Shown here piece after piece: positions 1,346 to 33,338 of a stretch of 64,000 nucleotides of DNA. Where the stretch lies: positions 143,986-207,985 of IMG/VR virus record IMGVR_UViG_3300044846_005229. One strand, written 5' to 3'. A program made the position numbers and the translations under genes. The stretch is from a virus. Each line of letters starts with the position of its first letter. The stretch's first letter is position 1. The notes beneath the pieces were generated by a model, which saw nothing but the letters and a program-made list of their open reading frames with translations, was not told where the DNA came from and ran no database searches.

Positions 1346-1699
1346 CTAGTCGGACGGTAAAGCGTCAAGCGCCAAATCCCAGATCCAGTGGGTTTCGTCG
1401 CCCAGCGGGTCGCCAGCAAACTCAAAATTGGCTACCGCCGCTTCGGCTAGTTGAGTAGCGGTTTCGTAATCACTTGCGTTTGCTCGCATCCAAATTCTAA
1501 CGCTTTGTTTACTTACCGATGCCAATTTAGTAGGTGAATAGCCCAAATTCCCATGGCGCTGCAATGATAAGGACTCAATTTCTGATTTCCTCTGATTGCG
1601 TTCTCTTGCCGCCGCCATACTGTTTCGTAAATAGCGGTTTTCGGATCTTGCGCTCATTTTTCTAAGGAAGCGAATGGGCCGGGTTTGGTCCCGATGCAC
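1346..1699 (-). CDS. hypothetical protein (117 aa; start uncertain, could be the internal MSARSEN)
   Basis: ORF track; -10 box atcatagcac at about 1702-1711 lies immediately upstream. Confidence 0.45.
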   Translation of the reverse strand: MHRDQTRPIRFLRKMSARSENRYLRNSMAAARERNQRKSEIESLSLQRHGNLGYSPTKLASVSKQSVRIWMRANASDYETATQLAEAAVANFEFAGDPLGDETHWIWDLALDALPSD

Positions 1700-1735
1700 T
1701 AATCATAGCACATTGCCACGGGGTTGGGGCCTTGG

Positions 1736-2720
1736 GTAGGGGCCTTGGGGTTGTTGACTCCTGGGGTGTGGTGGTTGCTGTGGGGTTGCTGTGGGGGTTG
1801 AGTATCTGGGGTTGTTGACTCCCAAGGTGTGGTGGACAGTTTGTAAACTGTCTATTTGCGTTGGGAGTTTGGTACCGAGGGTGTGTTTTCGGAGTTAATG
1901 TGGAACCTCAGGGTGCATTTTCCGGGTAATGTAGAATGCCCCAAATTGAAAACCTGAAATTCAATCCCTGAGATCCATTGCGGGGGAACGGAGTTACTCC
2001 TAAAAAAATTAAAAATTTTAGGACCTAGTGAAAAACGATTCAAAAAATTCTACATTTGAATGCAAATTCTGCACCCTGGGGCTCTTTATATACACTTTTT
2101 CGCGAATATATGTATAATGAGTGTTTACCTTATGTTGTTATAGTTTGTTGTTGATGGGTCCAAGTAGTCAACAACTGGGAGTGGTCCCAACAGTCTCAGT
2201 TAAGTATCGGAATGAGTCTACATCGAGTAGTTTACAGTTGGTATTAGTCCCAACAGTCTCAGTTAAGTATCGGAATGAGACCCAACCGAACAGTCAACAA
2301 CTGGAATACGGTCTCAACAGTCTCGTTTCAGTCCCATAATGAGACCACACCTCAGGGTAAATATGGCAGGTATTTTCGGAGTTAATGTGGAACCTTGGGG
2401 TGCGTTTTGTGAGTAATGTGGAATGTTGAGTGCAGTTTTCGGAGTAATGTGGAAACCACAAAATCAAAAAACCAAAATCCATTCCTTGAAATCGACTGCA
2501 GGGCAACGGAGTTACTCCTAAAATTTTTGAATTTTTTAGGACCTAATGAAAAAACGATCCAAAAGTTCCACATTTGAATGCAAATTCTGCACCCTACTAC
2601 TATATACTCGCGTAAAAATTATTTATAGTACACCCTTATCTAAATATCCATAATCAATAAGTTACCCTTATCTATGTACCAACCAATGAGTAATAGCGGT
2701 AAAGCAACAAAAAAAGGAGG
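1736..2720 (+). repeat. composite repeat module copy A: IR element (about 1911-2076), plus-strand TATAAT (about 2113-2118), 24-nt direct-repeat array (2193-2343), second IR element (about 2380-2595), conserved AT-rich tail
   Basis: About 90% identical over about 950 bp to 5300..6240; partial third copy at 10085..10440. Seen directly in the sequence. Confidence 0.85.
2193..2343 (+). repeat. array of GTCTCAGTTAAGTATCGGAATGAG direct repeats (2 perfect and 1 degenerate terminal copy) with about 35-40 nt intervening segments, downstream of a TATAAT box
   Basis: Repeat starts at about 2193, 2256 and 2320; the promoter-like tgTATAATgag sits about 75 nt upstream. CRISPR-like or iteron-like layout. 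Confidence 0.6.
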
Positions 2721-2810
2721 GTCACCTTTCGGCAGCCCCCATATCAGTAAGTATTTATATTTACTGGGTGAAATTAGACCCCGGAACCAACAACCCCGGC
2801 AGCCCGACCT

Positions 2811-3134
2811 TCAATAGCCAGCAAAGTCGTATCTATCGAAAGGTACTGGATCCCGCTTAATTTCTGATTCGATAATTTTGCGTGATTCGCTGTCCCAATG
2901 GCGCACAGTGACGGACTCTGTAGCAAATCCCCAGTTTTCCTCAGGTTGCCGGGTATAGTGAACCTTGGCATCATCCAGGCTTGCCCATACGAAGGCTTCA
3001 GGATTAGCTACGATCTGCTCCACCGCTTCCATGGTTTGGCAGAGGGTAGTGCCATTGGCACCCCTAACAGTATAACCAGCAATGCGCTTGCCAACTTCAT
3101 CGGTCGTGACATAGCAGTAGTCGATGGTTGCCAT
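2811..3134 (-). CDS. hypothetical protein (107 aa)
   Basis: ORF track; consensus promoter at 3160-3195 (minus-strand GGGGTTGAC, 18 nt, TGCTATAAT). Confidence 0.6.
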   Translation of the reverse strand: MATIDYCYVTTDEVGKRIAGYTVRGANGTTLCQTMEAVEQIVANPEAFVWASLDDAKVHYTRQPEENWGFATESVTVRHWDSESRKIIESEIKRDPVPFDRYDFAGY

Positions 3135-3159
3135 TGGTGCGCCTCGGTTGGTTGACCTA

Positions 3160-3195
3160 GGTATTATAGCATGGGTTCCTGGGCAAGGTCAACCC
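3160..3195 (-). promoter_or_regulatory. representative consensus sigma70-type promoter (-35 TTGAC at about 3188-3192, extended -10 TGcTATAAT at about 3163-3171)
   Basis: The same architecture recurs before most minus-strand genes (e.g. about 610, 1320, 4316, 4811, 5245, 7003, 7035, 7885, 9160, 13995, 17845, 21465, 22035, 25690, 28215, 28730, 33955). Confidence 0.7.
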
Positions 3196-3234
3196 CTTGA
3201 GTTCCCCCCTACGGCAAGCAGATGCCAGGATCAA

Positions 3235-3513
3235 TCAACCTTCGTACAAGGAAACATCATAGCGATGGGAGTAAAAATCCCCTAGCCCCCCACTATCGAC
3301 CACCAACATAAAGTCAAAGTCCGGGTGAGTTAGCACCACTTGTGTGGACTCGCTTTCGTAAATATTCCCATTGGACACACCCACCTGATCAAGGAAATAC
3401 CCTAAACTCTCAATATTGTCCATGTCTGGTATTTCGTAGTCGATTATCCGATAGCTATTCTCACCTTGTTCAAACAAATCTGTGACGGAATCAGGGATTT
3501 CGTAGGTTGCCAT
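3235..3513 (-). CDS. acidic hypothetical protein (92 aa)
   Basis: ORF track; -10 gtagtatagcac at about 3550-3562. Confidence 0.6.
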   Translation of the reverse strand: MATYEIPDSVTDLFEQGENSYRIIDYEIPDMDNIESLGYFLDQVGVSNGNIYESESTQVVLTHPDFDFMLVVDSGGLGDFYSHRYDVSLYEG

Positions 3514-3588
3514 TATTGGTCAGGGTGTTGCTGGTGTGGTCGATGGTAGTATAGCACGGATAGGCGAGTTGCCGGGGACCCCCGAAAG

Positions 3589-4020
3589 TCAATTAAAGCC
3601 GAGGATAAACTTACGTGCCGCTTCCGGCGTATTAAGTTGTCCGCCCATCATCATCATCAAGCCCAAACTGCAACCTACGTGTCCAGCTGTTTCAGGGTGC
3701 TTTTCAAGGTCGCTAAACATCGAGGAGAGGGCATTTTCTGCATCACCACGATCGCAGTATTCAAGGGCGCGTTTCTTGCACCATTCTAAGTGTTCGGATC
3801 GGTTTATTTGGGGGGTGTTGGTGTCGGGTGTTTGACTTTGGATGTTTGTCAATGGCAGTATAGCACGGATGGTCAGGGGACCGTGGTTGCCATTATGGTT
3901 GGTGACGCTTCGTAAAGACAGGCACGGCAAGTTGCCGATGGGCTTTTGGGTTTTGTTGCATTTCGCAACAACAGGCAAGGAAGGGCCACCGGCAGGCAAC
4001 CCCCCCCCCCCCAAGATCAT
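3589..4020 (-). CDS. hypothetical protein (up to 143 aa); N-terminus ambiguous
   Basis: Its ATG overlaps the stop of the upstream gene 4017..4286 (ATGA junction), which suggests coupling. However, a TATACT box at about 3858 and a C13 tract lie inside the N-terminal region. The conserved-looking part begins around RSEHLEWCKKRALEYCDRGD. Confidence 0.4.
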   Translation of the reverse strand: MILGGGGLPAGGPSLPVVAKCNKTQKPIGNLPCLSLRSVTNHNGNHGPLTIRAILPLTNIQSQTPDTNTPQINRSEHLEWCKKRALEYCDRGDAENALSSMFSDLEKHPETAGHVGCSLGLMMMMGGQLNTPEAARKFILGFN

Positions 4021-4286
4021 GCCATGAACTTAGCAATAGCCTCTTCGGCATCGGCACCATCGGCACCATGATTTACCATAAACTCCAACACAAGGCCAGT
4101 ATCACTATCGAATCGCGTCAGAAGGGAATCCAACAGTTCATCTTGACTGACACCACCAGAGGCATTCTGAAGCTCTGACATCCTGCTGTCCATGGCTTCA
4201 TTCCTAAGCTCATCAAGGCTCATCAAATCGACATAACGTTGGCAATGGGCTTCGGCGATCTCACGAATCAAGGATTGGTCGAACAT
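4017..4286 (-). CDS. hypothetical protein (89 aa)
   Basis: ORF track; promoter cggtattatagcac at about 4310-4325. Confidence 0.6.
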   Translation of the reverse strand: MFDQSLIREIAEAHCQRYVDLMSLDELRNEAMDSRMSELQNASGGVSQDELLDSLLTRFDSDTGLVLEFMVNHGADGADAEEAIAKFMA

Positions 4287-4412
4287 GGTTGCGTGTGCGG
4301 TTGGTTGACTTCGGTATTATAGCACAGGGGGGGCCACGGTGCGAGGGATGTTACAGGGGTAACAACAGGCACGGCAAGGGGCCAGGGTTCACAACCCCGA
4401 CCCCCAGGACAG

Positions 4413-4787
4413 TCAACCAAGGGCCACAATGGCATGTAAATTGGTGCGCCACGTTCCAGGCAGCTTCTCACCACGACGACCTACGATCACGGGCAATTCC
4501 CCAACCATCTCAACTACGGTATCAATCTCAAATACTTGCAAGGTGGCCGCCAGCCAGGTTCCAAACCAGCGAGTCCGACCCGTGGCCTTGGCAATGTAAC
4601 GGCAGCCATGGGGGCCTTCCATGGCAAACTCTCCTTCCTCCAAACAAAGATCATGGGGCGCATCAGCCAGGACATCCCAGTGTCCCCACCAGCCTTTACG
4701 GACGCCACCAGGGGCCTTCTCGCAGGGCTCAGCGGTGAATGAACCGATGCGGTTGATGGGTGAGGTGGCGGCGGTTGCGAATGCCAT
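4413..4787 (-). CDS. hypothetical protein (124 aa), start moved to MAFATAATSP
   Basis: Track ORF 4413..4859 overlaps the promoter aaattatagcatg (about 4808-4820). First ATG after the TSS is at 4787. Confidence 0.55.
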   Translation of the reverse strand: MAFATAATSPINRIGSFTAEPCEKAPGGVRKGWWGHWDVLADAPHDLCLEEGEFAMEGPHGCRYIAKATGRTRWFGTWLAATLQVFEIDTVVEMVGELPVIVGRRGEKLPGTWRTNLHAIVALG

Positions 4788-4881
4788 TGTTTCCGGTGGG
4801 TGCGATACCTTGAAATTATAGCATGTTTCCAAGGGGGTCAGGGTGCATCCCAACCACAAAACTGCCTATTAGCAACAAAAC

Positions 4882-5217
4882 TTAACCCATAATGCCCCCA
4901 GGCCAACGTCCTCCCGGCGGGGTGCGCTCTGATGGGGATAGTTCGGGTGTTTCATCATAATAGCTAGGACACAATTTGGCGAGGCGCTCTGCGTCGGAGA
5001 CGCATTGGCAGCATGGATTGTGCCTATTTTCCGCCATATAATTAGCGCCGCGCTTTGTTCTGAATGGTCCGATAACTGCCATGAAGTGTGGGGTATTGGC
5101 TTTGGTAGGGGTAACTACCGATTTGAAAACCTCCAATTTACCTTGGCCGTATGGCAAACCCACATAGAATTTTGCCCGTTGGGGTGTGTTGGTGGTTGAG
5201 GGGGTTGCGGTAGCCAT
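4882..5217 (-). CDS. hypothetical protein (111 aa), Cys-containing C-terminal half
   Basis: ORF track; promoter cgtaattatagcac at about 5243-5256. Confidence 0.55.
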   Translation of the reverse strand: MATATPSTTNTPQRAKFYVGLPYGQGKLEVFKSVVTPTKANTPHFMAVIGPFRTKRGANYMAENRHNPCCQCVSDAERLAKLCPSYYDETPELSPSERTPPGGRWPGGIMG

Positions 5218-5299
5218 CGTTGCGGTGTCGGTTGGTTGGCTTCGTAATTATAGCACATGGACGGGTCTGGATGCGGTTCGGCATGTTGGTGCGGTTCGG

Positions 5300-6240
5300 C
5301 ATGTTGACTCCTGGGGTGTGGTGGACAGTTTGTAAACTGTCTATTTGCGTTGGGGGTTTGACTTTAGGGGCTTGATTCCAGGGTGTATTTTAGGGGTTAA
5401 TGTATAATCCGGGGTGCGTTTTCCGGGTAATGTAGAATGCCTAATTTGAAAAGTCCGAAAGTCAACCGCTGAGATCGATTGCAGGGCAACGAGTTTACTC
5501 CTAAAATTTTTGAATTTTTTAGGACCTAGCGAAAAACCATCCAAAAAATTCTACATTTGAATGCATATTTTGCACCCTGGGGTCTTTATATACACTTTTT
5601 CGCGAATATATGTATAATAAGTGTTTACCTTATGTTGTTGGTGAGTTGAATAGTTGACGACTGGGTGTGATCTCGTCAGTCTCAGTTAAGTATCGGAATG
5701 AGTTCACATCGAGTAGTCTACAGTTGGCATCAGCCCCAACGGTCTCAGTTAAGTATCGGAATGAGACTCCACCAAATAGTAAACAACTGGGGTACGGTCT
5801 CAACAGTCTCGTTTCAGTCCCACAACAAGACTCATCCAAATAGTAAACAACTGGGGTACGGTCTCAACAGTCTCACTTCAATCTCACAATGAGATCACAC
5901 TTCAAGAGTAAGCAGATGGGTGCGTTTTTCCAGTAATGTAGAAACCCAGGGTGCATTTCCCAAGTAATGCAGAAACCCTAAAATCAAAAACCCGAAACTC
6001 AATCCCTGAGATCGACTGCAGCGGAACGGAGTTACTCCTAAAAAAATTAAAAATTTTAGGACCTTTTCAAAAACAGCATGAAAAATTCTACATTTGAATG
6101 CATATTTTGCACCCTACTACTATATACTCGCGTAAAAATTATTTATAGTACACTCTTATCTAAATATCCATAATCAATAAGTTATCCTTATCTATGTACC
6201 AACCAATGAGTAATAGCAGTAAGGCAACAAAAGAAAGGGG
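5300..6240 (+). repeat. composite repeat module copy B (IR element about 5385-5575; TATAAT about 5613-5618; 24-nt repeat array 5679-5893 with 2 perfect and 2 degenerate copies; IR element about 5915-6115)
   Basis: Paralogous to 1736..2720. The intervening segments are homologous between copies and one is internally duplicated. Confidence 0.85.
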
Positions 6241-6279
6241 GGAATCACCCTAAGGCAATCCCTCCCCTAAAAACAGCAC

Positions 6280-6465
6280 CTATGCCCAAATGGTCTCAAC
6301 ACGGGCATCATGCCCTTTCATCTTCATCGCTTCGGCGATTCTCTGAGCCACGTTCCGATCATGGTAATCCGCCCTGGTGGTATAGCCAGGAGCCCCAGAA
6401 CCAGGGGCAATCGAACCAGTGGCAATCGAACCAGGGGCGATGGTGACACGGTGTAGTTGGGCCAT
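6280..6465 (-). CDS. small hypothetical protein (61 aa)
   Basis: ORF track; promoter (tcttagcac ... gtcaaccccccc) at about 6490-6535. Confidence 0.5.
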   Translation of the reverse strand: MAQLHRVTIAPGSIATGSIAPGSGAPGYTTRADYHDRNVAQRIAEAMKMKGHDARVETIWA

Positions 6466-6533
6466 GGTGCGGTTTGGTGCGGTTGGTATGGACGTATCTT
6501 AGCACAGGTCCGAGGGGAACGTCAACCCCCCCC

Positions 6534-6965
6534 TTACCCGTACCACCCATACTGGCGAACCCTCTCCAAATAGGTCTCCCAAACCGACGGATCCATGGCA
6601 CCTGCCGTTGTCTTAAAGTGATGGGAGAAAAACGTAATGGCAAGCTCCATATTGCGCCTACCAACAGGATTAGCAGAATGAATGACCACAGCCGGTGGAA
6701 TAAACCCACCATCAAAACCATTCTCATACACAATTTGCTCAATCCACTTGCAAACATCCATGCCAGTTCCCCTAGCGTCATCCCCGAGATCATGATCCAA
6801 GGATACAACTTCGACATTGCCAGTCTTCAGCAATTCGATAACCTCATCAGGCCAATAGCAACGGACCCACCCATCAGGGGTAGGCCTGATATCATCGAGA
6901 AATACTTTCATTGCCTTGGGTTTAGGTAGACTGTGGGCGTGGTTGCCATTGGGGGTGGTTGCCAT
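6534..6965 (-). CDS. CPR (cyclic-phosphate-processing receiver-like) domain protein
   Basis: MKVFLDDIRPTPDGWVRCYWPDEVIELLKTGNVEVVSLDHDLGDDARGTG resembles the Rec-like CPR domain described in RNA-repair gene neighbourhoods (recalled, not searched). Two tandem TATAAT promoters at about 7003 and about 7035. Confidence 0.5.
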   Translation of the reverse strand: MATTPNGNHAHSLPKPKAMKVFLDDIRPTPDGWVRCYWPDEVIELLKTGNVEVVSLDHDLGDDARGTGMDVCKWIEQIVYENGFDGGFIPPAVVIHSANPVGRRNMELAITFFSHHFKTTAGAMDPSVWETYLERVRQYGWYG

Positions 6966-7102
6966 TGGGGGTGGTCCGGTGGGTGACGGTAGGGGAATTA
7001 TAGCATAGGCCTGGCAGGTTAGTTGGTGGCCCCGTAATTATAGCACAGGGGGGTCAGGCTACGGGTGCCGTTACATTCCGTAACAACAGGTACGGCAAGG
7101 AG

Positions 7103-7216
7103 TCACTGGATGGCAACCCCTGTAAAGAATTGGCCAGGTTGTGGGGTTATGCTTTCGCTCCTGAAGGGTAGCCAGGCGAAGAAGGGCAGCCCTGCGGCTG
7201 ATAATCCTAATTCCAT
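7103..7216 (-). CDS. possible 37-aa hydrophobic peptide (MELGLSAAGLPFFAWLPF...)
   Basis: Small ORF found by manual rc translation, downstream of the TTGACA-17-TACAAT promoter at about 7262-7292. Not in the track (<60 aa). Confidence 0.25.
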   Translation of the reverse strand: MELGLSAAGLPFFAWLPFRSESITPQPGQFFTGVAIQ

Positions 7217-7460
7217 TTCCCACTATTTGCCTTCACGTCTACCTGTATTTTGGGTTGTTTAGCCATTGTAGCATGGGCCTGGCAGTGTCAACTCATGGCG
7301 TTAACTGAGTTTACTGCAACATGGTTGCCGTTGGTTGGTGGCGATTGGGTTTGAACCCATTGTTTGCGGGGGGCTGGTGGGCTGGTGATAGGGGAATTGT
7401 AGCATGGCCCGGCAGGTTGGATGGTTTACTTTGGTAGTATAATACGAACCCGATAGGCAG

Positions 7461-7826
7461 TCAATCCTTAGCGGTAATCTCAGCACCTTCCAGTAGTTTG
7501 GAAGCTAGGTCAGTATCACCCGCCTTAATTGCGTTTTGGATGCGTTCTTTCAAGGTTAGCTCGTATGACCATTTTCGGCCGTTGATGGTGCCCCTGACAT
7601 TGCCCCCGACAGAGCCCTCGACAGAGCCCCCGACAGAGCCCCCGACAGAGCCCCTGACATTGCCCCCGACAGAGCCCCTGACATTGCCCCCGACAGAGCC
7701 TAGGACATCACCCAAGACACCACCCCTGACATTGCCCCCGACAGAGCCCTCGACATCATTTACCCGCCATTCACCGCTGATTCTGGTGAAAGTAACTAGT
7801 TTTTTAATTTCTTCAATGCTTGGCAT
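7461..7826 (-). CDS. Gly/Val-rich octapeptide-repeat protein (GSVGGNVR x about 9), possibly a beta-helical or bactofilin-like fold
   Basis: ORF track; internal 24-nt periodicity visible in the DNA; promoter ggaattatagcatgg ... gtcaaccc at 7875-7915. Confidence 0.55.
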   Translation of the reverse strand: MPSIEEIKKLVTFTRISGEWRVNDVEGSVGGNVRGGVLGDVLGSVGGNVRGSVGGNVRGSVGGSVGGSVEGSVGGNVRGTINGRKWSYELTLKERIQNAIKAGDTDLASKLLEGAEITAKD

Positions 7827-8017
7827 TTCAATTTAGGGGTTTGATGATGTCATGGTGTGTCCGGTGGTTGGTGACAAAGGAATTATAGCATGGGTCCGGC
7901 AGACAGTCAACCCTTAGGGACCTGGGGCCACACCCCAAACAGCAAAAAAAAGGGGGGGGCCGATGCCAACGGCACCAACCCCCCCCCCAAGCAATCGGCC
8001 GATACCGACGGCTCCAA

Positions 8018-10084: not shown

Positions 10085-10440
10085 AAGAGTTTATGCCATT
10101 GAGTTTATGCCATGGTGCATTTTGCGAGTAATGTAGAAGTCTAGGGTGTGTTTTCGGAGTTAATGTAGAATGCCAAGGGTGCTTTTTCTGGGTAATGTGG
10201 AAACCCCCAAATTGAAAATCGAAAATTCATTCCCTGAGATCCGTTGCAGGGCAACGGAGTTACTCCTAAAATTTTTGAATTTTTTAGGACCTAATGAAAA
10301 AACGATCCAAAAGTTCCACATTTGAATGCAAATTCTGCACCCTACTATCATATATTCGCGAAAAGTATATTTAATAGAAGACTCTTATGTATAGTTCCAT
10401 AACCAATAAGAAATCCTTATCACTGCACCCTCCATTCAAA
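10085..10440 (+). repeat. composite repeat module copy C (partial: one IR element with three GTGC.TTTT..G.GTAATGT.GAA direct repeats, hairpins GGAGTTACTCC and CCTAAAA...TTTTAGG)
   Basis: Homologous to the IR elements of modules A and B; lacks the internal promoter and array. Confidence 0.8.
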
Positions 10441-11807: not shown

Positions 11808-12116
11808 TCAGGCGGATACCTCTTGTTTGGTTAGCCAGGCTTCTACGGCAGCCAGCGCCGACGGGGGGACCATGCGATGGCCGACGGGCTGCCATGAGTG
11901 ACTGGCCCATCCGCCGGCAGGCTGCTCATGCCATTCAGTCAACCTGCGGAACATATAGAAAACCGCTGTTTCATTAAGCGACAGTAAATCAGGAAAATAC
12001 TGATACTCTACCCGAAAAAGGAGATACCAAGAAAAAGCGTTTCTGGGCCAGGCTTGGACGGTCAAGCCGCTGGCGGGGTCAGTGTAGACGGTTGTAACGG
12101 CAAGGGTGTTGGTCAT
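11808..12116 (-). CDS. hypothetical protein (102 aa)
   Basis: ORF track only. Confidence 0.4.
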   Translation of the reverse strand: MTNTLAVTTVYTDPASGLTVQAWPRNAFSWYLLFRVEYQYFPDLLSLNETAVFYMFRRLTEWHEQPAGGWASHSWQPVGHRMVPPSALAAVEAWLTKQEVSA

Positions 12117-12149
12117 TGGTGGTTGGCTGCAGGGAAAGAAAGGCCAAAG

Positions 12150-12368
12150 TTAAGAATTGAAGTAGTCATATTCGTAATCACCTAAATCTAAATCCTCCAA
12201 GAATTGTTTAAAAAACTCTTCTTCGGTTAGTGGCATCACACTTTCTGGCAGCGTGGCATACGGGTTAGTTGGCCAGCTATTAAGGAGCCGATCTCTAAGC
12301 GCATGGTTGACTTTGCGTTTGCCCATGGGGATTGCGGTTTGTGGAATCTGACTCCCATAGTCTAGCAC
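12150..12368 (-). CDS. hypothetical protein (72 aa)
   Basis: ORF track only. Confidence 0.4.
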   Translation of the reverse strand: MLDYGSQIPQTAIPMGKRKVNHALRDRLLNSWPTNPYATLPESVMPLTEEEFFKQFLEDLDLGDYEYDYFNS

Positions 12369-12417
12369 ACATGGGCCAAACTGACCCGTACTCAGTCCGA
12401 TGCCAATTCATGCCAAT

Positions 12418-12618
12418 TCATGCCAATTCACAAACCGACACACAGTAACCCACACTCTCCACCCTCTCACAAACCATCCTAGCGCATTGCCTCTCAGCCT
12501 TCTCCTTAGATGTCGAAACATACATAACGGAAGCCCACGCATCGGGGTAACTCCCGTAAGCAACTACACTGTAGGTTAAGGTAGGGGCTTCATAGGCAAG
12601 AATTGAATCAGGATTCAT
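12418..12618 (-). CDS. hypothetical protein (66 aa)
   Basis: ORF track; promoter catagtatagcac at about 12635-12650. Confidence 0.45.
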   Translation of the reverse strand: MNPDSILAYEAPTLTYSVVAYGSYPDAWASVMYVSTSKEKAERQCARMVCERVESVGYCVSVCELA

Positions 12619-12715
12619 TGGTTGTGCCGTGGTTGCTGACTTTCATAGTATAGCACACGGGAGACCGAACCGAACCGAACCCCCCCTATGCCAGTTGCTT
12701 AATTGTCCTTAAATC

Positions 12716-13570
12716 TAAGATAAATCAATACCGTGGGTATCATACCACCATTCTTTTGTTTTATCTGGATGTTTATCTTTAATCTTCAAGTATCGTGAAG
12801 TTATTTTACTTTGTCGGTTAACTTCGTCAGCAAAAAATTGATGCTCAATAGTTTCCCCACTTTTGTATAGTTAGCGCAATAATTTACGCAAAACATACTC
12901 CTGTTTTTGGTTTCCAGGTTTATACCCAGACTCTATTATTTTGTAGATGGTTTCCTTTAGAGTTTCCGTTGAACTTTTTACTGGATTCCCTAAAATACTT
13001 TCAATTCTCTCTAAACCAAACCCAACATCAATAAACTGTCCAGATGTATTAACAATGTTACCAATTTCTATTCCATTCTTATAAAATTCAGTGCAGTAAC
13101 CACCGAGTTCACCATCACTCCAAACGCATTCTGAATCGTATCTAATTTCCAGATCAGGATAATCCAAATAAAAATATTTCCAAGAGTTGTACTTATCCGG
13201 GTGCATAGTTACATAATCTATGGAAACTTTTAGTATGTCATTAAAAAAATTTCATCCAAAAATGAATGGTTTGTTGCATCGTCAATTCACCAAAGGAAAA
13301 AAGACCCAACATATTAAAATACAATAAATGAGACCCATCACCAATTTCATCTAAATCCTGTAGGCGGATGCAAGATTGGCTATTAGCGATAGATGTATTA
13401 TCTGGATTTTTAAACTTGTCCTTAAACTGTTGCATTCCAGCAGGACAAAATAGGGTAGTGTCGTCATAAGGCTTCACGCTATCATCCACCTTAAATGAAA
13501 TGTTATTACTCTCGCAATAACTCCGGTATAGATCTATTACTTTAGTCATTTTTAACGTAGGATGAGCCAT
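12716..13570 (-). pseudogene. alanyl-tRNA synthetase N-terminal (catalytic-domain) fragment, disrupted by a +1 frameshift at a T7 run (about 13241-13250) and an in-frame TAA (12871-12873); nothing beyond the first about 300 residues
   Basis: TLFCPAGMQQFKDKF...SQSCIRL...HLLYFNMLGLFSFGE, then DVGFGLERIESIL and QEYVLRKLLR match AlaRS class-II motifs (established knowledge of AlaRS). Homology continues across the stop (R*LYKSGETIEHQFFADEV versus RRAVRHG..ETFFYKLV). AT-rich island. Confidence 0.6.
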
Positions 13571-13959
13571 TGCATTGCAAAGTGAATGGTTATGAGTAAA
13601 TAGTGGTCAGCTAAATTGTATAGGGTATCTTTAATCTTCAAAGTTATCCCCAAATTCTCTTCGCAGAACCCTATACTTTTGAAGCCGCCTTTTTCTTTCT
13701 TGGGCTGCACGTATCTCCTCCCTTTAATTCTCGCTTGATACTCAGCATCAGTTTCTTCACGTTGGAAATACGGTGTTAATCCGATGATGCACCCATCGTA
13801 GTTTTCACACTCTTCAAAATACACATACCCCTTGGTTTTCAATTCTTGAAACCTCTTAATTGCATCATCAATTGAGCCTGCTAAATGAGCAAAATAAATG
13901 CTGCTCCCACTGACTCTAACCATTTTCTTTTCAGTGTCGTTGATGTTGAACTTTTCCAT
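13552..13959 (-). CDS. hypothetical protein (135 aa), start moved to MEKFNINDTEKK
   Basis: Track ORF 13552..13992 begins inside the promoter ttgtagcatagg ... gtcaaccccc (13993-14030). Confidence 0.5.
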   Translation of the reverse strand: MEKFNINDTEKKMVRVSGSSIYFAHLAGSIDDAIKRFQELKTKGYVYFEECENYDGCIIGLTPYFQREETDAEYQARIKGRRYVQPKKEKGGFKSIGFCEENLGITLKIKDTLYNLADHYLLITIHFAMQWLILR

Positions 13960-14307
13960 TGGGGTTACGGTTTGTTCCGGTGATGGACTCATTGTAGCAT
14001 AGGGCCAACGGCAGCGTCAACCCCCTGGCTCCAAACCCGTAGTAAAACACCGGGGCGGAAACATTTGAACGTAACGGCGAACATCAGCCAAATAAATTGA
14101 CCTAGACATAACGGTTATGCCGTTCCCCCCATTTAGTCGAAATTGATAGACCAATCTGATGATGGTGCCGATGCAGGTATTATACGAGGCAGGTTAGGTG
14201 CCATTTGGGTCCGTGTGCCAGTTCTCAGGGTGTCACAAGCAATTTCAAGGGTCCCCACCGTTAATTATGCCGATGTCGGTTACTTGTACCAATTGTAACC
14301 ATGACAA

Positions 14308-14508
14308 TTAAACCCAAGACTCTGAGACTATAATATCAACCACCTTCAAATCATAATCATACCTAACCTGACAAACATCATAAGATACCCCACCAATAAG
14401 AATCATTTCGCCCTTTCGCGGAATAATGCTAGAGACATAATTTATGCCCAAGATGGGGCCACCATGGGTCTTAAACCCTAATTGAAATTGGTTAACGATA
14501 GAGTTCAT
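14308..14508 (-). CDS. hypothetical protein (66 aa), AT-rich island
   Basis: ORF track; 4-nt overlap with the upstream gene. Confidence 0.45.
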   Translation of the reverse strand: MNSIVNQFQLGFKTHGGPILGINYVSSIIPRKGEMILIGGVSYDVCQVRYDYDLKVVDIIVSESWV

Positions 14509-15269
14509 TGGTTGCGATGAGAGTTAATTCTAGTAGTCAGACCAACGACCAGCTGATACATCATGTCACGATGCTTTGTTGTCCATTGTTCATCAGAATA
14601 AGACGTTCCGACCTTATACACTCTCCCAGCACCAAGTTCCTTATTAAGATAATTAAACCATGCGGTGCAAAAATTCAATGCGACCCCTCGCACACATTCC
14701 GGTGATTTACTGCTAAGTAAGTAAACCTTAGAATACTCCTCAGAGAGTGGATAAGGTCTTACATATTTGTACTCGTCGCCACCACCATGCTCGGTTCTCA
14801 TTGGGTTATCCTCTTCGTTCACCAGCTGCTGATACAGACTGTCAACCGAAAGGTCATCCGGTGTAATCTCAGGAAAGACATACTTTGCAAGTTCCCCCTC
14901 AATGAATGCCTCTTTGTTCCAGTTATCCTCCCTTTCTCTGCCTACTTTTTTGTATATTTTTTCCAGCTCAAGTTCCCATTCTTCTTTCTCTTCTGCTCTT
15001 TTTTTAACCTTCTCTCTCCATCGCGGCATCATCTCTTTCGTCATTTCTTCCTTATTGAAATCGGGAAACAAATGAATTGGGTACCTATCTCCAATGCCAA
15101 TAGGCGACTGAGTTTCTTCATCCATCTCATAACCATTGCCGATAGTAAAGAAAATGTGATCAAGAACACTTGCAGCACTAGGGAAGATGCTGTGATATTC
15201 ACCCATTTGATACGAAACAAAATTACAAATTGATTGAATTGCCATGTCAGTTTTCCAATTGCCTCTCAC
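14505..15269 (-). CDS. hypothetical protein (254 aa), AT-rich island
   Basis: ORF track; 4-nt overlaps on both sides (operon-like). Confidence 0.6.
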   Translation of the reverse strand: MRGNWKTDMAIQSICNFVSYQMGEYHSIFPSAASVLDHIFFTIGNGYEMDEETQSPIGIGDRYPIHLFPDFNKEEMTKEMMPRWREKVKKRAEEKEEWELELEKIYKKVGREREDNWNKEAFIEGELAKYVFPEITPDDLSVDSLYQQLVNEEDNPMRTEHGGGDEYKYVRPYPLSEEYSKVYLLSSKSPECVRGVALNFCTAWFNYLNKELGAGRVYKVGTSYSDEQWTTKHRDMMYQLVVGLTTRINSHRNQ

Positions 15270-15625
15270 AAGTACAACCCGGGGTGAAAATGATCATTGC
15301 TATAGGACCTTACTTTCTGATTATCTGACATAAGAAAATAAGTCAAATTATCAATGAGATTTTTAGTAACTCTGGTAATCATCATCTGCCGATTAAGTTT
15401 GTAGTTCAAGTCCTTAAGAAGATCCCTAACAGCAACTGCAGAAAGAGTAACTTCAAAACCCCCTTGCTTACGGACTGATTCTTGCAAGTTGCTATAAACA
15501 AACTCACCTATATCAGTATAAACATAACCAACTTCTAATACAATTCTAAAGTCGGACAAAAATGCAGCCGCTTCTTGACGTTCAAGAAAAACCGTAAGAG
15601 ACGATTCCCGTTTTTTGAAGTTCAT
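15266..15625 (-). CDS. hypothetical protein (119 aa), AT-rich island
   Basis: ORF track. Confidence 0.55.
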   Translation of the reverse strand: MNFKKRESSLTVFLERQEAAAFLSDFRIVLEVGYVYTDIGEFVYSNLQESVRKQGGFEVTLSAVAVRDLLKDLNYKLNRQMMITRVTKNLIDNLTYFLMSDNQKVRSYSNDHFHPGLYL

Positions 15626-15825
15626 TGGTGGTAGGTGGTGGGGGGTGGTTGGTTGGTTGGTCCCGATTGGTTCCGGCTGGTTCCGGTGATAATCCCATTA
15701 TAGCACAATGCCAAGGCAATAGCAACCATCCCACTCAAACGGGGGTAGCAGGCTCAACCCCGCCGGCAGACACAAGCTCCCGCCAGCGTAAATCTGATGC
15801 CTCACCCACAAGATAATCCACACAA

Positions 15826-16041
15826 TCATGCCAATCCCCTTCCATAACTCCATAACTCCATAACTCCATAACTCAACAATCTCTGCAATGCCACAGCTAA
15901 AACCTCAGAAGTCGGCAACGGGCGGCCACTTTCCTTCCGAGACCTTGCCAATAAGGACACATCCCGGCAGGCTTCATTGCAAGCGGCTTCAATTTTGCGC
16001 GATTGGTTGCTGCTGGTGCGGATGGTGGCAGTAGTGTCCAT
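15826..16041 (-). CDS. hypothetical protein (71 aa)
   Basis: ORF track; promoter gcaggtattatacatgac at about 16085-16105, a near-copy of the one at about 14180. Confidence 0.4.
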   Translation of the reverse strand: MDTTATIRTSSNQSRKIEAACNEACRDVSLLARSRKESGRPLPTSEVLAVALQRLLSYGVMELWSYGRGLA

Positions 16042-16131
16042 GGTTGTTTGTAAGTGAGTGGGGTCAGAAGGTGGCCGATGCAGGTATTATACATGACAGG
16101 TTGGCAGCCGCACGGGGCCGATGCCAGCTAG

Positions 16132-16716
16132 TCAACTGGCCAAATCAGCAAACAGCGGCACGAAAACCGGATCATCAATACCTTCAATCAGTTCATAAGT
16201 GGCACACCCGACGGCACACCCGGCGGCATCGGCGGCGGCATCGACGGCGGTCGCTCCGGCGGCGGCGGCGGTGGCTATGGCGGCGGCGGCGGCGGCGGCA
16301 CCTAAGGCACGGCAGCGGCTAGCAACTTCTTTCCATTGGCCTCCGGTAAGACCGTCCACAAACCACCAAAACTTCATAACCGCTTGGTAGTTCTTGCCGA
16401 GGTATTTCTCAGGACTTGTCAAAACATCAGACGGGGCCCCCGGTTGACCGTCATTAATTAGACGCAGAAGAACCGAATGTGCCGCTGAAATATCCAAAAG
16501 TCTAGCAACTTCGCGATCTGCTTTATACTGTGTAATACTACGAAGATCCTCTTCGCTATAACCGCCAATCTTGTATAATGCCTGCCCTTGGGCGCACATA
16601 CAGGTTGTTGGCTCTTTACCGTCGCCAGGCGGCTCTTCGGAGATTAGTCTACGCTTAAAGGGGATATTCCGGGGATCTTCCCAAAAGGCCAGAAGTGTTT
16701 CGGCTGCGGTGTTCAT
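16132..16716 (-). CDS. hypothetical protein (194 aa) with poly-Ala C-terminal tract; N-terminal domain homologous to the central region of 41354..42730
   Basis: SAAHSVLLRLINDG...PEKYLGKNYQAVMKFWWFVDGLTGGQWKE versus SVIHSILLRRFNDL...PERVLGKNWNKVLEFWHFLDSLTQGQCKK. Confidence 0.55.
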   Translation of the reverse strand: MNTAAETLLAFWEDPRNIPFKRRLISEEPPGDGKEPTTCMCAQGQALYKIGGYSEEDLRSITQYKADREVARLLDISAAHSVLLRLINDGQPGAPSDVLTSPEKYLGKNYQAVMKFWWFVDGLTGGQWKEVASRCRALGAAAAAAAIATAAAAGATAVDAAADAAGCAVGCATYELIEGIDDPVFVPLFADLAS

Positions 16717-16787: not shown

Positions 16788-17552
16788 TTAAAGTGTCACT
16801 TCAAACGTTCCGTGAGAATCGTCCTTTGCATTCCTCTTAAGAAAGGGCGCAATTCCTAGCCAATCGTTATGCGTTACCGGGTAGAACACATGAAGATAAC
16901 TACTGATGTGCTCAGGAATTCTACTAGAAAAATACTTATCGGCTTTCACCAATTCGTAAATTTTTGCGTAGGTTTCTTGATCTGGACGAATGATAACCTT
17001 GCTGATGCATTGATCATAATCATATTCACAGCTATAATAAGAAATGTTCTCAATTTTCAAGTCATCTTTATTAAGAACCCAGGGATGTCCTTTAAGATAC
17101 TCCAAAAGTTCAGGAAGATTGAAGTATTTGTTGTTGAACTGAGAGTCAATGTAATTAAACCCACGCGGAAGAGTATAAGGAACAGCATTTGAATCAAAAA
17201 ACATATGGCCAGAACTATAAATCCAAACAAGATTCTCTTCAGAAATGTTACCTTCAAGAATCTCCTCATCACTCATTTCGTGATATTCATAGGTCCAGAA
17301 CGGATTATAAGTTTTAATGAATTCAAAGAATGAGTCCCTAACTAATGCCGGTCTGCATTCTTTAAGAACTTTCAGGCTTTTATCTTTGACCGCATTGATA
17401 ACTTCAACTACTGCGGAAGTCTTACCTGATGGCTCCACCGTGGTAGTCGTCACTTGAAGATAGGCAAGACTCTTATCCACACCGGGAATAATGTAAGATA
17501 CAATCTCCGTAAATGTTGTGTGACGGGTATTTTCAAATGGTGCGAGTTTCAT
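16788..17552 (-). CDS. hypothetical protein family Y (about 254 aa), paralog of 32610..33338; AT-rich
   Basis: Very high identity including a near-identical about 300-nt DNA stretch (compare the identical spurious plus/minus ORFs at 17057..17272 and 32843..33058). Start set at MKLAPFENTRH by analogy with MELTPIKITRH. Confidence 0.65.
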   Translation of the reverse strand: MKLAPFENTRHTTFTEIVSYIIPGVDKSLAYLQVTTTTVEPSGKTSAVVEVINAVKDKSLKVLKECRPALVRDSFFEFIKTYNPFWTYEYHEMSDEEILEGNISEENLVWIYSSGHMFFDSNAVPYTLPRGFNYIDSQFNNKYFNLPELLEYLKGHPWVLNKDDLKIENISYYSCEYDYDQCISKVIIRPDQETYAKIYELVKADKYFSSRIPEHISSYLHVFYPVTHNDWLGIAPFLKRNAKDDSHGTFEVTL

Positions 17553-18527: not shown

Positions 18528-19913
18528 TCACAAAACCTCAGGTAAAACATAGCCTTTAATTTTCGCAACCCGCTTATTCAAAATAGCCCAATCATCCAAA
18601 TCCTTAAACCTAAAGTGAGCAGACCCCTTCAGGAATACCTTAAACTCAAAGAATCCCCAATCTTGCCATACCCCTGGTTCCAATCGGTCTTTGCCACAAA
18701 CAGGGTCCTTAACGGCATCATAATCTTTGCCAGTCAAAGTAGATAGGACCTTAATTAAGTCCGCTACCTTATAGTAATTAGTCTGATAGGATCTAACAGA
18801 TACGGTCCCCCCACTCCAATCTTTCTCCGCAAAGTACGGCAAAATAAACTTCTTCCCAAATAAATACTGCTCATTGGTCTTCCATCCTTCTACACCATGT
18901 CTATTATCGTGATAATGCTTAGTGAAAGCATCGAAAACTTGCTCTACAGTCCTATCCAATCGCTGATCCTGAGTTGCAATAACGATCTCCAACATCCTGT
19001 AGATATTCCTCATTGTAAACGGAACCTTACTTTGTTGCTCCACAAACCTGTTAATATCTTTAAGCAATTCCGTAGTTGCCAATTTCTCCATTCCCATCTT
19101 ACTAAATACAAATTCCCACGCTGATCTTTGCAGGTCTTTTTGAAAGTCATTCCTTGCTTTTGCCTGGCCATTTTCCGTACAAACAAATGCGATATTTGAT
19201 TTGTAAAATCCGCTCAGCACCCTATTTATACCAACTGCAGACTCAATCTGCCTATCATAAATCCTGCAGGCTTCCACGTATCGGTTGACAATATCCCTAA
19301 CAAAATTATACGGAATCAGACCTTCCCCTTCAGCTTCAATTGCATCGGGACCCATAAAGAACCCATTAAACTCAGCATCAGAACCCAAGGCAGGCTTCCT
19401 AAGGGTAACTAATCCTATTGCCACATCCGTAGAACGCTCCGCACCCTTAAAGACCTCACCCAAGTTCTCAACGTGCCCATAGTTTCTAATTAGGGTCCCC
19501 AATTGCCTACGCGCCAAAGAATATTCATTTCGTACAGTCTCCCAATTACATAATGACACAATTTGACACCCTGGCGGTGCAATCTCGAAGGCATAGTTAA
19601 TATGTTTTTCGTCCCCACTGAAAGGGGGATTCATTATGATGAAGTCCACATGGCTTATTGCTTCCGGTTGAACATCCAGGAAGTCGGTGCCAATTAGTTT
19701 ACATTGTTTTGCTGCCAGGATTGCCCTGAGGTTATCATCAATTTCACACGCCAGAACTTCACTAGCCCCATATTGCAAGCAACCTTCTACCAAATTGCCA
19801 GAACCTGCGGATGGCTCCAGAACAACTTTGCCATTCAAGTCGAATGGGGCTAGCATGTAGGATATTACGTGTTCCGGGGTCGGATAATAGTCTTTGTTGT
19901 TATAGGATGGCAT
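18528..19913 (-). CDS. N6-adenine DNA methyltransferase (motif order X-I-IV: TPEHVISYM ... VLEPSAGSGNL ... IMNPPF) with a large C-terminal region
   Basis: NPPF catalytic motif and FxGxG-like AdoMet motif. Start moved to MPSYNNKDYYPTPEHV; the track N-terminal 49 aa are Pro-rich and probably non-coding. Confidence 0.75.
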   Translation of the reverse strand: MPSYNNKDYYPTPEHVISYMLAPFDLNGKVVLEPSAGSGNLVEGCLQYGASEVLACEIDDNLRAILAAKQCKLIGTDFLDVQPEAISHVDFIIMNPPFSGDEKHINYAFEIAPPGCQIVSLCNWETVRNEYSLARRQLGTLIRNYGHVENLGEVFKGAERSTDVAIGLVTLRKPALGSDAEFNGFFMGPDAIEAEGEGLIPYNFVRDIVNRYVEACRIYDRQIESAVGINRVLSGFYKSNIAFVCTENGQAKARNDFQKDLQRSAWEFVFSKMGMEKLATTELLKDINRFVEQQSKVPFTMRNIYRMLEIVIATQDQRLDRTVEQVFDAFTKHYHDNRHGVEGWKTNEQYLFGKKFILPYFAEKDWSGGTVSVRSYQTNYYKVADLIKVLSTLTGKDYDAVKDPVCGKDRLEPGVWQDWGFFEFKVFLKGSAHFRFKDLDDWAILNKRVAKIKGYVLPEVL

Positions 19914-20096
19914 TGGGTTCCGGTGGGTAATGGTGGGATGACCGGTAGTGGGGGTTAGTGGCGGGGGGAATAGCTGGTAATGAGGGGTAATGGGGAAGGG
20001 TGGATAGGCAGGGTACCAGTTAGTTGCGGTGGGAATGATTGATAGCGACGATGGCCACAAGCGGTCAGACCCCCAAAGTCAACCCAAAGTCAAACC

Positions 20097-23142: not shown

Positions 23143-24570
23143 TTACCCCGAAACCCTGACATCCCTAATCTCTATACCCTCAGCTTCCAGCAACTCCCGG
23201 AGCCTATCTGCCTCCTTAAAATCACGGTTAGCCCTTGCGATATTACGTTTTTCAATTAGTGCTTGAATACCATCGCTTTTTGGTTTTTGAGGTGCGGGAA
23301 CCTCATGAACTAATCCTAAAATTCCGGCCAATTCACATAAGAGCCTCCAACGATTTAGAATTTCCCTATTTTCATCGCCCGCTGATACGATGGGGCGAGC
23401 CAAATAGAACAATTCCCCGATGGCTACAGACGTATTAAGATCATCATTGAGTGCCGAAATGAAACGATCTTGACTATTTTTTAAGTCTGTAGTTAAAATC
23501 AAGGGTTCATTCGTTTGCTGACTATCGCCATGTTGACTAATTCCATGCCGACTAACATCATGCTGACTAGCCCCATGCCAACTATCACCATGCCAACCAA
23601 ACCCCAATGCAGCATTTAATACTTTCCAACCATTGATCGCGGGCACCATTGCTTCCGAATTAAAATCTATCGGCTTTCTATAGTGGGCTTGTAATACGAA
23701 TAATCTAATGGTCATAGGGCTAATTCCTGATCCAATTAGGTCTCTGATGGTTGTGAAATTCCCTAAGGATTTAGCCATTTTCTCTTCCCCAACCGTGACA
23801 AACCCATTATGAAGCCAATACCTGGCTAGTTCAGCCCCATTGGCGGCCTCCGACTGGGCTATCTCGTTTTCGTGGTGAGGAAAGATCAGGTCGGCTCCGC
23901 CCAAATGAATGTCAATCGTGTCGCCCAACTCCCCGCGCACCATAGCCGAACATTCAATGTGCCAGCCGGGACGGCCCCACCCCCATGGTGACGGGTACCC
24001 ATGGTCAATAGGCATTGCCCCTTTCCAAAGAGCAAAATCAAAAGGGTGGCCCTTCTTTGAGTCGCTATTAACCTGTTGTTGGCCAAGGTTGCGACCACTT
24101 AGTTTCCCGTACCCCTTAAACCCCACAACCGAGAAGTACATATCACCACCCATAGAATAAGCAAACCCTTTATCAGCAAGGTCTTGAATCATGGTGCGGA
24201 TTGCATCAAGACTACGGGTAACCCTTGGCATTTTGTCGGCAGGCAGGATGTTCAATGTGCCCATGTCTTCCTCAAAGGCCTTAATATTGCGCTCACTGAC
24301 GGCCCCGATTGTTACTCCTTCGGAGTTGGCTTTGGCTAGAATTTTATCGTCGATATCCGTATAATTTTGAACAAACGTAACCTCATACCCATGCCACATA
24401 AAATTACGCCTTAAGACATCCCACACGATATAACTACGGGCGTGCCCTAAGTGGCATAGATCATAAACGGTAACACCGCAACAATACATCGACACTTTGC
24501 CTGGAACCAGCGGGATAAACTTCTCTTTGGTTTTAGTTAGGGTGTTGGTTAGGGTAATGTCGTTAATCAT
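23143..24570 (-). CDS. cysS: cysteinyl-tRNA synthetase (class I; HIGH = CHLGHARSY, KMSKS = KMAKSLGN) with a low-complexity insertion WHGDSWHGASQHDVSRHGISQHGDSQQ
   Basis: Full-length alignment-level similarity to CysRS (zinc ligands and anticodon-binding region present). The insertion is encoded by about 15-nt tandem DNA repeats (catgYYgactaRYM) at about 23520-23600. Confidence 0.9.
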   Translation of the reverse strand: MINDITLTNTLTKTKEKFIPLVPGKVSMYCCGVTVYDLCHLGHARSYIVWDVLRRNFMWHGYEVTFVQNYTDIDDKILAKANSEGVTIGAVSERNIKAFEEDMGTLNILPADKMPRVTRSLDAIRTMIQDLADKGFAYSMGGDMYFSVVGFKGYGKLSGRNLGQQQVNSDSKKGHPFDFALWKGAMPIDHGYPSPWGWGRPGWHIECSAMVRGELGDTIDIHLGGADLIFPHHENEIAQSEAANGAELARYWLHNGFVTVGEEKMAKSLGNFTTIRDLIGSGISPMTIRLFVLQAHYRKPIDFNSEAMVPAINGWKVLNAALGFGWHGDSWHGASQHDVSRHGISQHGDSQQTNEPLILTTDLKNSQDRFISALNDDLNTSVAIGELFYLARPIVSAGDENREILNRWRLLCELAGILGLVHEVPAPQKPKSDGIQALIEKRNIARANRDFKEADRLRELLEAEGIEIRDVRVSG

Positions 24571-32609: not shown

Positions 32610-33338
32610 TCATACGGCCGCGTTCATAAGAAAGGGAGCAATTCCCAGCCAATCGTTATGCTTTTCACGGTTGAACAGATAAAGATAACTGCTGATGTTC
32701 TCAGGAATTCTACAAGAGAAAAACTTATCAGTTTTCACCAATTCATAGATTTTTGCATAGGTTTCTTGGTCTGGACAAATAAGGACACTGATATATTTAT
32801 CTCTACCATCGCTGCAATTATAATAAGGAACATCCTCAATCTTCAGATCTTCTTTATTAAGAACCCAGGGATGTCCTTTAAGATACTCCAAAAGTTCAGG
32901 AAGATTGAAGTATTTGTTGTTGAACTGAGAGTCAATGTAATTAAACCCACGCGGAAGAGTATAAGGAACAGCATTTGAATCAAAAAACATATGGCCAGAA
33001 CTATAAATCCAAACAAGATTCTTTTCGGAAATGTTACCTTCAAGAATCTCTTCATCACTCATATTGTGATATTCATAGTCCCAAAATGGGTTATTAGTTT
33101 TAATTCGTTCAAAGAATGAATCTTTAACAAAAGTAGGTCTGCATTGTTTAAGAACTTTCAGGTCCCTATCTTTGACCGCATTGATAACTTCAACTACTAC
33201 GGAAGTCTTGCCGGATGGTTGCACTGTGGAAGATGTTACTTTAAGATAAGCAAGATTCTCATTTACGCCTGGAATAATATAATCTACAATCTCCGTAGAT
33301 GTTTCGTGGCGAGTGATTTTAATTGGGGTGAGTTCCAT
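32610..33338 (-). CDS. hypothetical protein family Y, paralog of 16788..17552; AT-rich
   Basis: Near-identical C-terminal about 100 aa and DNA; start set at MELTPIKITRHE. Confidence 0.65.
   Translation of the reverse strand: MELTPIKITRHETSTEIVDYIIPGVNENLAYLKVTSSTVQPSGKTSVVVEVINAVKDRDLKVLKQCRPTFVKDSFFERIKTNNPFWDYEYHNMSDEEILEGNISEKNLVWIYSSGHMFFDSNAVPYTLPRGFNYIDSQFNNKYFNLPELLEYLKGHPWVLNKEDLKIEDVPYYNCSDGRDKYISVLICPDQETYAKIYELVKTDKFFSCRIPENISSYLYLFNREKHNDWLGIAPFLMNAAV

Follow-up and report, generated by a model that had tools for sequence, protein, structure and literature searches.

A probable pseudogene of a compact, stand-alone alanyl-tRNA synthetase domain in a jumbo phage

The giant virus Tupanvirus encodes a 461-aa alanyl-tRNA synthetase (AlaRS), TuAlaRS, that was shown to charge tRNA-Ala as well as a microhelix (PMC10036535). 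The AlaRS-like protein AcmF, in contrast, has lost the residues for ATP and alanine activation (N219Q, D232E) and uses pre-charged Ala-tRNA (PMC12945691). In the Escherichia coli enzyme, N303 and D400 read the G3:U70 base pair (PMC10036535). Here we describe a compact AlaRS-like gene found in a 64,000-nt stretch of viral DNA (IMG/VR record IMGVR_UViG_3300044846_005229, positions 143,986 to 207,985; hereafter the window). The source of the window is a jumbo phage, and its closest relative is a 284-kb contig, L003. An AlaRS-like coding region runs from 13570 to 12709 on the minus strand, as does every gene in its neighbourhood, and is broken by an extra T and two premature stop codons. We consider it likely that this region is a very recently inactivated pseudogene of a phage-encoded, free-standing and compact AlaRS aminoacylation domain of about 280 aa, which we call mini-AlaRS.

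A broken gene with intact relatives

A first-pass annotation of the window had assigned two open reading frames (ORFs) to AlaRS, and the assignment held. ORF 13241-13570 (-) matches PF01411, the AlaRS class II core, with 57.8 bits (E 9.8e-16; Pfam cut-off 30.3), and the homology continues in the 111-aa ORF 12871-13206 (-), which has only a weak match to the same family. A +1 shift placed exactly within an A3T7 run and an in-frame TAA with some 50 codons of homology beyond it were likewise borne out. Ancestral states were fixed by nucleotide alignments and codon-by-codon comparison with relatives, and residues are numbered throughout as in P0001, the top-matching intact protein. The features of the gene, all on the minus strand, are as follows.

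13241-13570 (-): fragment 1 of the mini-AlaRS gene, 109 codons with class II motifs 1 and 2, including the invariant motif-2 Arg69
13243-13249 (-): lesion 1, a T7 run with a one-base insertion and +1 shift, placed by alignment to relatives
12874-13242 (-): fragment 2, the middle of the gene in the +1 frame, with the alanine pocket and motif 3 (W150, N171, V173, D181, G183, R188)
13204-13206 (-): ATG produced by I122M (ATA to ATG), a change specific to this lineage; start codon of the listed ORF 12871-13206
12871-12873 (-): lesion 2, a premature TAA at codon 233, where orthologs have CAA or CAG (Gln)
12718-12870 (-): fragment 3, 51 codons of a compact helical region resembling a tRNA-recognition region, with no start codon of its own
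12715-12717 (-): lesion 3, a TAG at codon 285, where orthologs have TTG or TTA (Leu), two codons ahead of the ancestral stop
12709-12711 (-): ancestral TAA stop of the gene, placed by alignment to orthologs

Fragment 1 terminates as FWMKFF followed by TAA, and three-frame translation showed that this stop (13243-13241) arises from the extra T within the A3T7 run. At the same site L011 and L012 carry six Ts (ATG AGA/GGA TTT TTT AAT) and L003 reads AGG TTC CTT AAT, where the window reads AAA TTT TTT T AA; at the level of mRNA the lesion becomes UUU UAA U (13246-13240, -). The +1 frame that follows begins NDILKVSIDYVTMHPDK and runs to the in-frame TAA at 12873-12871, which is a C-to-T change since orthologs read CAA or CAG there. 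After this second lesion the same frame stays open for 51 codons (ending EWWYDTHGIDLS), a stretch that holds the family-conserved W274, W275, D277, T278 and G280, and then meets the TAG at 12717-12715, which the first-pass annotation had not recorded and which is a third lesion as judged by alignment. The true start of the gene is likely ATG 13549, as deduced from contig L030. Relative to its orthologs the window copy thus carries one frameshift and two premature stops, and no uninterrupted full-length frame was found in it.

Intact relatives were sought with the 284-aa product obtained by removing one T and bridging the TAA, which returned 878 protein matches at E<=1e-5. The best 120 of these 878 are 255-311 aa long (median 280), and nearly all carry PF01411 alone. 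The top match, P0001, is a 286-aa unbroken ORF that is 96% identical to the query (E 1.5e-187) and is encoded on the 284,095-bp JGI contig L003 and on at least 12 further contigs. Orthologs in related phage contigs are single ORFs of 279-286 aa with 87-96% identity, and intact copies lie in the syntenic contigs L003-L010, L011, L012 and L030. The window and L003 are syntenic at 78-93% nucleotide identity across most of 1.8-23.6 kb, and the region of the gene itself (12636-13974) is 93% identical. More distantly, an intact copy with 60% identity is present in the 634-kb uncultured huge phage LR745206. One shorter protein, P0004 (259 aa), was considered as an N-terminally truncated variant and rejected, as it is an intact gene whose start was miscalled.

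Because the native length is about 280 aa, the gene is not what remains of a longer AlaRS after truncation, and because it occupies the same syntenic position in relatives diverged to dS ~1.2 (range 0.2-1.2), it is not a recent insertion. The earlier description of a decaying, horizontally acquired synthetase was therefore right about the disruption and wrong in treating the gene as a remnant or a newcomer.

Reality and age of the inactivation, and its alternatives

By exact-protein look-up, at least 8 contigs carry a gene call identical to the 109-aa product of fragment 1. Five of these loci, each from a different sample, comprising four Logan assemblies (SRR27428180, SRR27335566, SRR27421183 and SRR27423001) and one JGI assembly (3300042459), match the window over 1.0-4.2 kb at 100% identity, or 99.95% in the case of L026, and the T7 run, the TAA and the TAG are present in all five wherever the contig reaches those sites. 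One of them, L026, diverges from the window sequence beyond 14155, so the broken allele sits on at least two slightly different backbones. An exact-pattern scan of a viral contig collection gave no match to the T7 allele, and a pattern scan of a metagenome contig collection gave none to the window haplotype in either its T6 or its T7 version; since the exact-protein look-up did find the allele, the pattern-scanned collections merely lacked the relevant samples. Recurrence of the same allele in at least five independent assemblies excludes random sequencing error. The first-pass annotation had proposed errors in the homopolymer, and a one-base change in homopolymer length is indeed a classic error type, but two of the three lesions are substitutions, the assemblies that share the T7 run were made by different assemblers, and the relatives' T6 alleles pose no difficulty to assembly from comparable data. 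We therefore regard a sequencing or assembly artefact, in which the true sequence would have T6 and sense codons and the gene would be intact, as very improbable.

Two observations indicate that the inactivation is very recent. With the lesions masked, the ratio of nonsynonymous to synonymous substitution rates (dN/dS) between the window copy and L003 is 0.07 at a dS of 0.19 (pairwise Nei-Gojobori), within the range of 0.05-0.08 seen for intact relatives, and the window copy still encodes the right residue at all 44 columns that do not vary among 120 family members. The nucleotide differences from L003 are unevenly spread: 23 of the 38 fall in codons 97-139, starting at the frameshift site, where identity to L003 drops to 82% from 97.9% elsewhere in the gene. 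This suggests that codons 97-139 are a recombination patch, and a sequence scan for a donor of the divergent patch GTAACTATGCACCCGGATAAGTACAAC found none. A second contig, L023 (IMGVR_UViG_3300042301_005229, 1600-3350), retains only the last ~92 codons of mini-AlaRS, partly out of frame; two unrelated ORFs (263 and 141 aa) stand in place of the 5′ two-thirds or so. The gene has been lost here independently, and loss is thus not limited to the window lineage. Intact and broken mini-AlaRS alleles apparently co-circulate in related samples.

Some features of the locus weigh against a simple, recent death of the gene. Two nonsense changes among the roughly 4-8 nonsynonymous changes on the window branch exceed chance (P 0.02-0.09, nonsense being expected for 6.3% of nonsynonymous mutations). 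The UUU UAA U sequence would permit perfect +1 re-pairing of tRNA-Phe, giving KFFNDILKV as in relatives, and the lineage-specific I122M supplies an ATG for the middle fragment. The nonsense excess, the clustering of mutations by the frameshift and I122M may all be coincidences, and in view of these oddities we leave a small share of our confidence, though more than a token one, to residual or split expression.

One form of residual expression, which the first-pass annotation had also raised, is programmed recoding, in which a +1 frameshift at UUU UAA U and read-through of UAA-C would yield a low level of full-length enzyme as a regulatory device. The site does offer a shifty codon in the P site with a stop in the A site and an ortholog-like product, and, as family members differ at position 233 (Q/E/L/M/I/K), whichever residue was inserted there would be tolerated. 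Conservation of the frameshift was looked for and found in no diverged relative examined and in none of the 120 aligned family members: the gene is one ORF in L003-L012, in L030 and in all complete proteins of the 120, and T7 is confined to near-identical contigs. Upstream of the shift site, in UUUUGGAUGAAAUUU, there is no Shine-Dalgarno-like stimulator at a prfB-like spacing (~3 nt before the shifty codon); GGAUGA, the sole purine-rich stretch, resembles a Shine-Dalgarno sequence poorly and leaves a gap of 5 nt to the P-site UUU. Folding after the shift site revealed no stimulatory RNA structure, with an unremarkable local z of -1.5. Recoding would further require two independent low-efficiency events, the second at a TAA that serves as the normal terminator of 27 of the 103 window ORFs. 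With the frameshift shared by none of the relatives and in-frame stops absent from the other genes compared, programmed recoding is unsupported, and we rate it as highly unlikely. A split enzyme, with fragment 1 and a fragment 2 started at ATG 13206 made separately and reassembling into a partly active protein, seems to us just as improbable. The methionine at position 122 is unique against the 120 aligned members, which have I, V or L there in every case, and it places an in-frame ATG 34 nt past the stop of ORF1; local genes mostly lack an obvious Shine-Dalgarno sequence, which makes reinitiation conceivable. Such an enzyme, however, would have lost residues 110-121 as well as the last 53 residues, including the nearly or fully invariant W274, W275, T278 and G280, the break would separate motif 2 from motif 3 within the catalytic fold, and the family offers no precedent.

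We judged an alternative genetic code, or a phage suppressor tRNA that reads UAA and UAG as sense, to be the least probable explanation of all. Orthologs do have Gln where the window has the TAA and Leu where it has the TAG, and at 49869-49980 in the window lies an odd tRNA-like gene, interrupted by a large insert, whose anticodon is not confidently readable. Against this, about 25 other genes compared with L003 contain no in-frame stop, all three stop codons terminate window ORFs (TGA 65, TAA 27, TAG 11), and a reassigned codon would leave the frameshift unrepaired. A UAA-suppressing tRNA, another suggestion of the first-pass annotation, was looked for in the 64-kb window, the part of the genome seen: the recognisable tRNAs are Ser(UGA), Ile(UAU) and Arg(UCU), the element at 49869-49980 is not assignable, and no suppressor was found among them. 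A broader version of residual expression holds that the gene is not dead but down-tuned or split, by a +1 slip with read-through or by reinitiation at I122M, and yields scant full-length or complemented mini-AlaRS. This too we consider a long shot; if it were true, the nonsense excess would reflect selection to throttle a costly or defence-triggering enzyme and not neutral decay.

Under the preferred reading of a recent pseudogene, three mutations ended the full-length product: the change from T6 to T7, from CAA to TAA and from TTG to TAG. Transcription would probably still start from a promoter-like site at 14020-13991, and translation would give just a fragment of 102-109 aa with motifs 1 and 2. 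The gene is evidently dispensable: L023 has lost the 5′ two-thirds of it, neighbouring genes carry frame-breaking indels of 26 and 16 nt, and the broken allele persists in a natural freshwater phage population. The window copy shows that, in at least some conditions, the phage can do without the gene. The lesion itself is routine gene loss, a phage accessory gene caught soon after its inactivation.

The surrounding locus and the wider window

The neighbourhood of the gene contains the following features, again all on the minus strand.

13991-14020 (-): sigma-70-type promoter-like site, TTGACG, 18-nt spacer and TG-TACAAT, 10/12 matches with an extended -10
15697-15725 (-): promoter-like site, 10/12 matches with a TG-extended -10, upstream of a three-ORF cassette
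13552-13992 (-): upstream ORF, start probably at ATG 13923
13975-15693 (-): segment missing from L003, which has other genes there; three ORFs (15625-15266, 15269-14505, 14508-14308)
15735-16041 (-): neighbouring gene split into two ORFs, with a 16-nt expansion of the 8-mer GAGTTATG to four copies at 15843-15874

The locus had been described as an AT-rich island, at about 35% GC against about 50% elsewhere, that lacks the consensus promoter. The two mini-AlaRS fragments do have the lowest GC content of the ~100 window ORFs (34.5 and 34.8%), but the neighbours range from 36 to 42%, the window mean is 46.0% and not 50%, and the other ORFs span 36.6-57.5%, with several at 36.6-38.5%. The low GC content fits an old acquisition from an AT-rich source. 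The promoter claim did not stand: the sites at 14020-13991 and 15725-15697 are among the best promoter-like sites in 12000-16500, and the former is predicted to head a two-gene unit made up of the upstream ORF and the mini-AlaRS gene.

The upstream ORF had no match in Pfam, NCBIfam or PHROG. Compared with its 88-aa ortholog in L003 it carries a 26-nt indel (13704-13729) and an A4/A5 run difference, which alter its C-terminus and make it overlap the mini-AlaRS start. Relative to L003 only the segment 13975-15693 is lineage-specific, and its 119-aa ORF resembles gp219 of the freshwater Synechococcus phages B3 and B23. On the far side of this segment, the L003 ortholog of the split gene at 15735-16041 is a single 102-aa ORF with two degenerate copies of the 8-mer, and the fourfold repeat in the window may be prone to slippage. 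The few kilobases around the mini-AlaRS gene are thus in flux.

Elsewhere, the window encodes a DnaN-like clamp, an RNA ligase, a pentapeptide-repeat protein and several tRNAs, and a megablast search with 50 kb of it against isolate phages found no match. About 10 kb from mini-AlaRS lies a full-length, intact CysRS gene (23143-24570, -; 475 aa) with catalytic, DALR and anticodon-binding domains, so the phage keeps one aminoacyl-tRNA synthetase (aaRS) while losing another. The tRNA-like element at 49869-49980 (-) is an Rfam tRNA call of 47.8 bits with ~54 nt in place of the 13-nt anticodon-arm core, and ARAGORN did not call it even with an intron search. A possible anticodon loop, ACGUUAA (GUU, Asn), follows an insert of ~41 nt, and the element is not a tRNA-Ala, because its acceptor stem has G3:C70; an intron-bearing or permuted tRNA is conceivable, as is a tRNA-like element. 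GC-rich repeats 200-300 bp long lie between genes at ~1875-2077, 2372-2676, 5367-5648, 5918-6196 and 10114-10421, each matching several L003 sites (14196-14504, 15057-15336, 19220-19494 and 19763-19960) at 75-90% identity, and the gene caller had placed a 53-aa ORF on one of them. The paralogous ORFs 32616-33338 and 16824-17552 (-), of ~243-264 aa, are a duplicated gene, both matching the protein at L003 5430-6161 with 76-79% identity.

The mini-AlaRS family and known AlaRS-like proteins

A profile search of 1.84 billion representatives delimited the family as 61 clusters (at 50% identity) with E<=1e-30, canonical AlaRS starting just below. Every one of 120 members has the motif-2 residue R69, N171, V173, D181, G183 and the motif-3 residue R188, and at least 90% have W150; these catalytic and alanine-pocket residues are all still encoded in the window copy. 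From a motif alignment to solved AlaRS structures, we take the E. coli alanine-pocket residues R69, W170, N212, V214, D235 and G237 to correspond to R69, W150, N171, V173, D181 and G183 of the family. P0001 scores 84.5 bits against PF01411 (cut-off 30.3), and its AF2 model has a mean pLDDT of 89.5 and a pTM of 0.83. In a Foldseek search with this model the top 23 matches were all AlaRS, aligned over ~400 columns on targets of 425-441 residues. Since 286 aa align over about 400 columns of AlaRS fragments, the protein is a condensed version of the whole aminoacylation domain, and the first-pass statement that the locus covers the first ~300 residues of AlaRS was misleading, as these columns belong to the 441-residue E. 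coli fragment. No editing or C-Ala domain is present, the protein ending at ~286 aa, and the match to NCBIfam TIGR00344, the alaS equivalog, reached 85.5 bits against a cut-off of 457 and covered model positions 16-165 of 847. On the model, the family is a free-standing catalytic core with a shortened tRNA-recognition region.

As the intact relatives keep the class II motifs, the alanine-binding pocket and the shortened helical tRNA-recognition region, their most likely activity, judging from sequence and predicted structure, is alanine activation, probably with charging of tRNA-Ala or its acceptor stem. The equivalent of the G3:U70-reading Asp is D277, present in 38 of 41 members, and that of the Asn is N220, present in 22 of 41 with Pro in 16. 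The only hint at tRNA-Ala charging from genomic context is in LR745206, where one gene of a tRNA array, ~370 nt downstream of mini-AlaRS, is a predicted tRNA-Ala(UGC) with G3:U70. The gene in this phage (contig L001) lies in a dense translation-related island (2575-3414, 4854-5594, tRNAs 3516-7896), flanked by a 246-aa ORF resembling a class II core aaRS (PF00587), a Thg1-like tRNA-His guanylyltransferase and 13 tRNA genes. Separately, three marine-type phage contigs carry an 88-nt ARAGORN call of 'tRNA-Ala(AGC)' (L018 2338-2425, L019 1555-1642, L021 2326-2413) in a tRNA array, with mini-AlaRS 600-1400 nt further downstream. This call shows U3:A70, not G3:U70, in the acceptor stem and has extra sequence in the anticodon region; it is either an odd tRNA or a miscall.

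The family is widespread and apparently unstudied, with members in hundreds of contigs of uncultivated phages that are often very large. With tblastn of P0001 we found it in none of 50,697 deposited phage records except LR745206, the other matches among isolate phages being just bacterial AlaRS contaminants at ~25% identity. No PHROG matched beyond a weak hit to an 897-position family, and a full-text literature search found no description of a phage AlaRS of ~280 aa.

The closest solved structures are the AlaRS aminoacylation fragments of E. coli (residues 1-441, 3HXU) and Aquifex aeolicus (1RIQ), which share the fold of the family (Foldseek E 1e-15 to 1e-16, TMq 0.76-0.78). Family and bacterial fragments have the same class II motifs, pocket residues and GYVLR and DT-G tRNA-recognition motifs, but the family is 280 aa long against about 440, is ~20% identical and has several helices and loops deleted, for example the motif-2 GGKH insert. 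GlyQ, the GlyRS alpha subunit of ~290 aa, has the class II fold most closely related to that of AlaRS and is of similar size to the family. Its fold match, however, is only TM 0.44-0.48 at 10-13% identity against 0.77 for AlaRS, and an assignment to GlyQ was rejected on fold and Pfam scores, as Pfam places the family in tRNA-synt_2c. The frameshift site, for its part, invites comparison with the +1 frameshift of prfB (CUU UGA C), since UUU UAA U likewise combines a shifty codon with a stop and allows perfect P-site re-pairing; unlike prfB, the window site has no upstream stimulator, is not conserved in orthologs and leads into a downstream frame that is itself broken.

AcmF, from ascamycin biosynthesis, resembles the family in being an AlaRS-like protein cut down to the aminoacylation and tRNA-recognition domains (PMC12945691). 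An AcmF-like transferase was rejected: the Asn and Asp that correspond to the residues altered in AcmF are invariant in the family, which therefore looks like an activating enzyme. Like TuAlaRS, it is virus-encoded and consists of the aminoacylation domain without editing or C-Ala domains (PMC10036535). TuAlaRS differs in coming from a virus of eukaryotes and in lacking the Asn and Asp that read G3:U70 (PMC10036535), whereas the phage family keeps the Asp equivalent in most members and the Asn equivalent in about half. If the family charges tRNA-Ala, it would set a new minimum size for an AlaRS that recognises the acceptor stem and provide a compact tool for aaRS engineering: at ~280 aa, and with an activity predicted from its sequence, it is ~180 aa shorter than TuAlaRS, the smallest AlaRS shown to be active.

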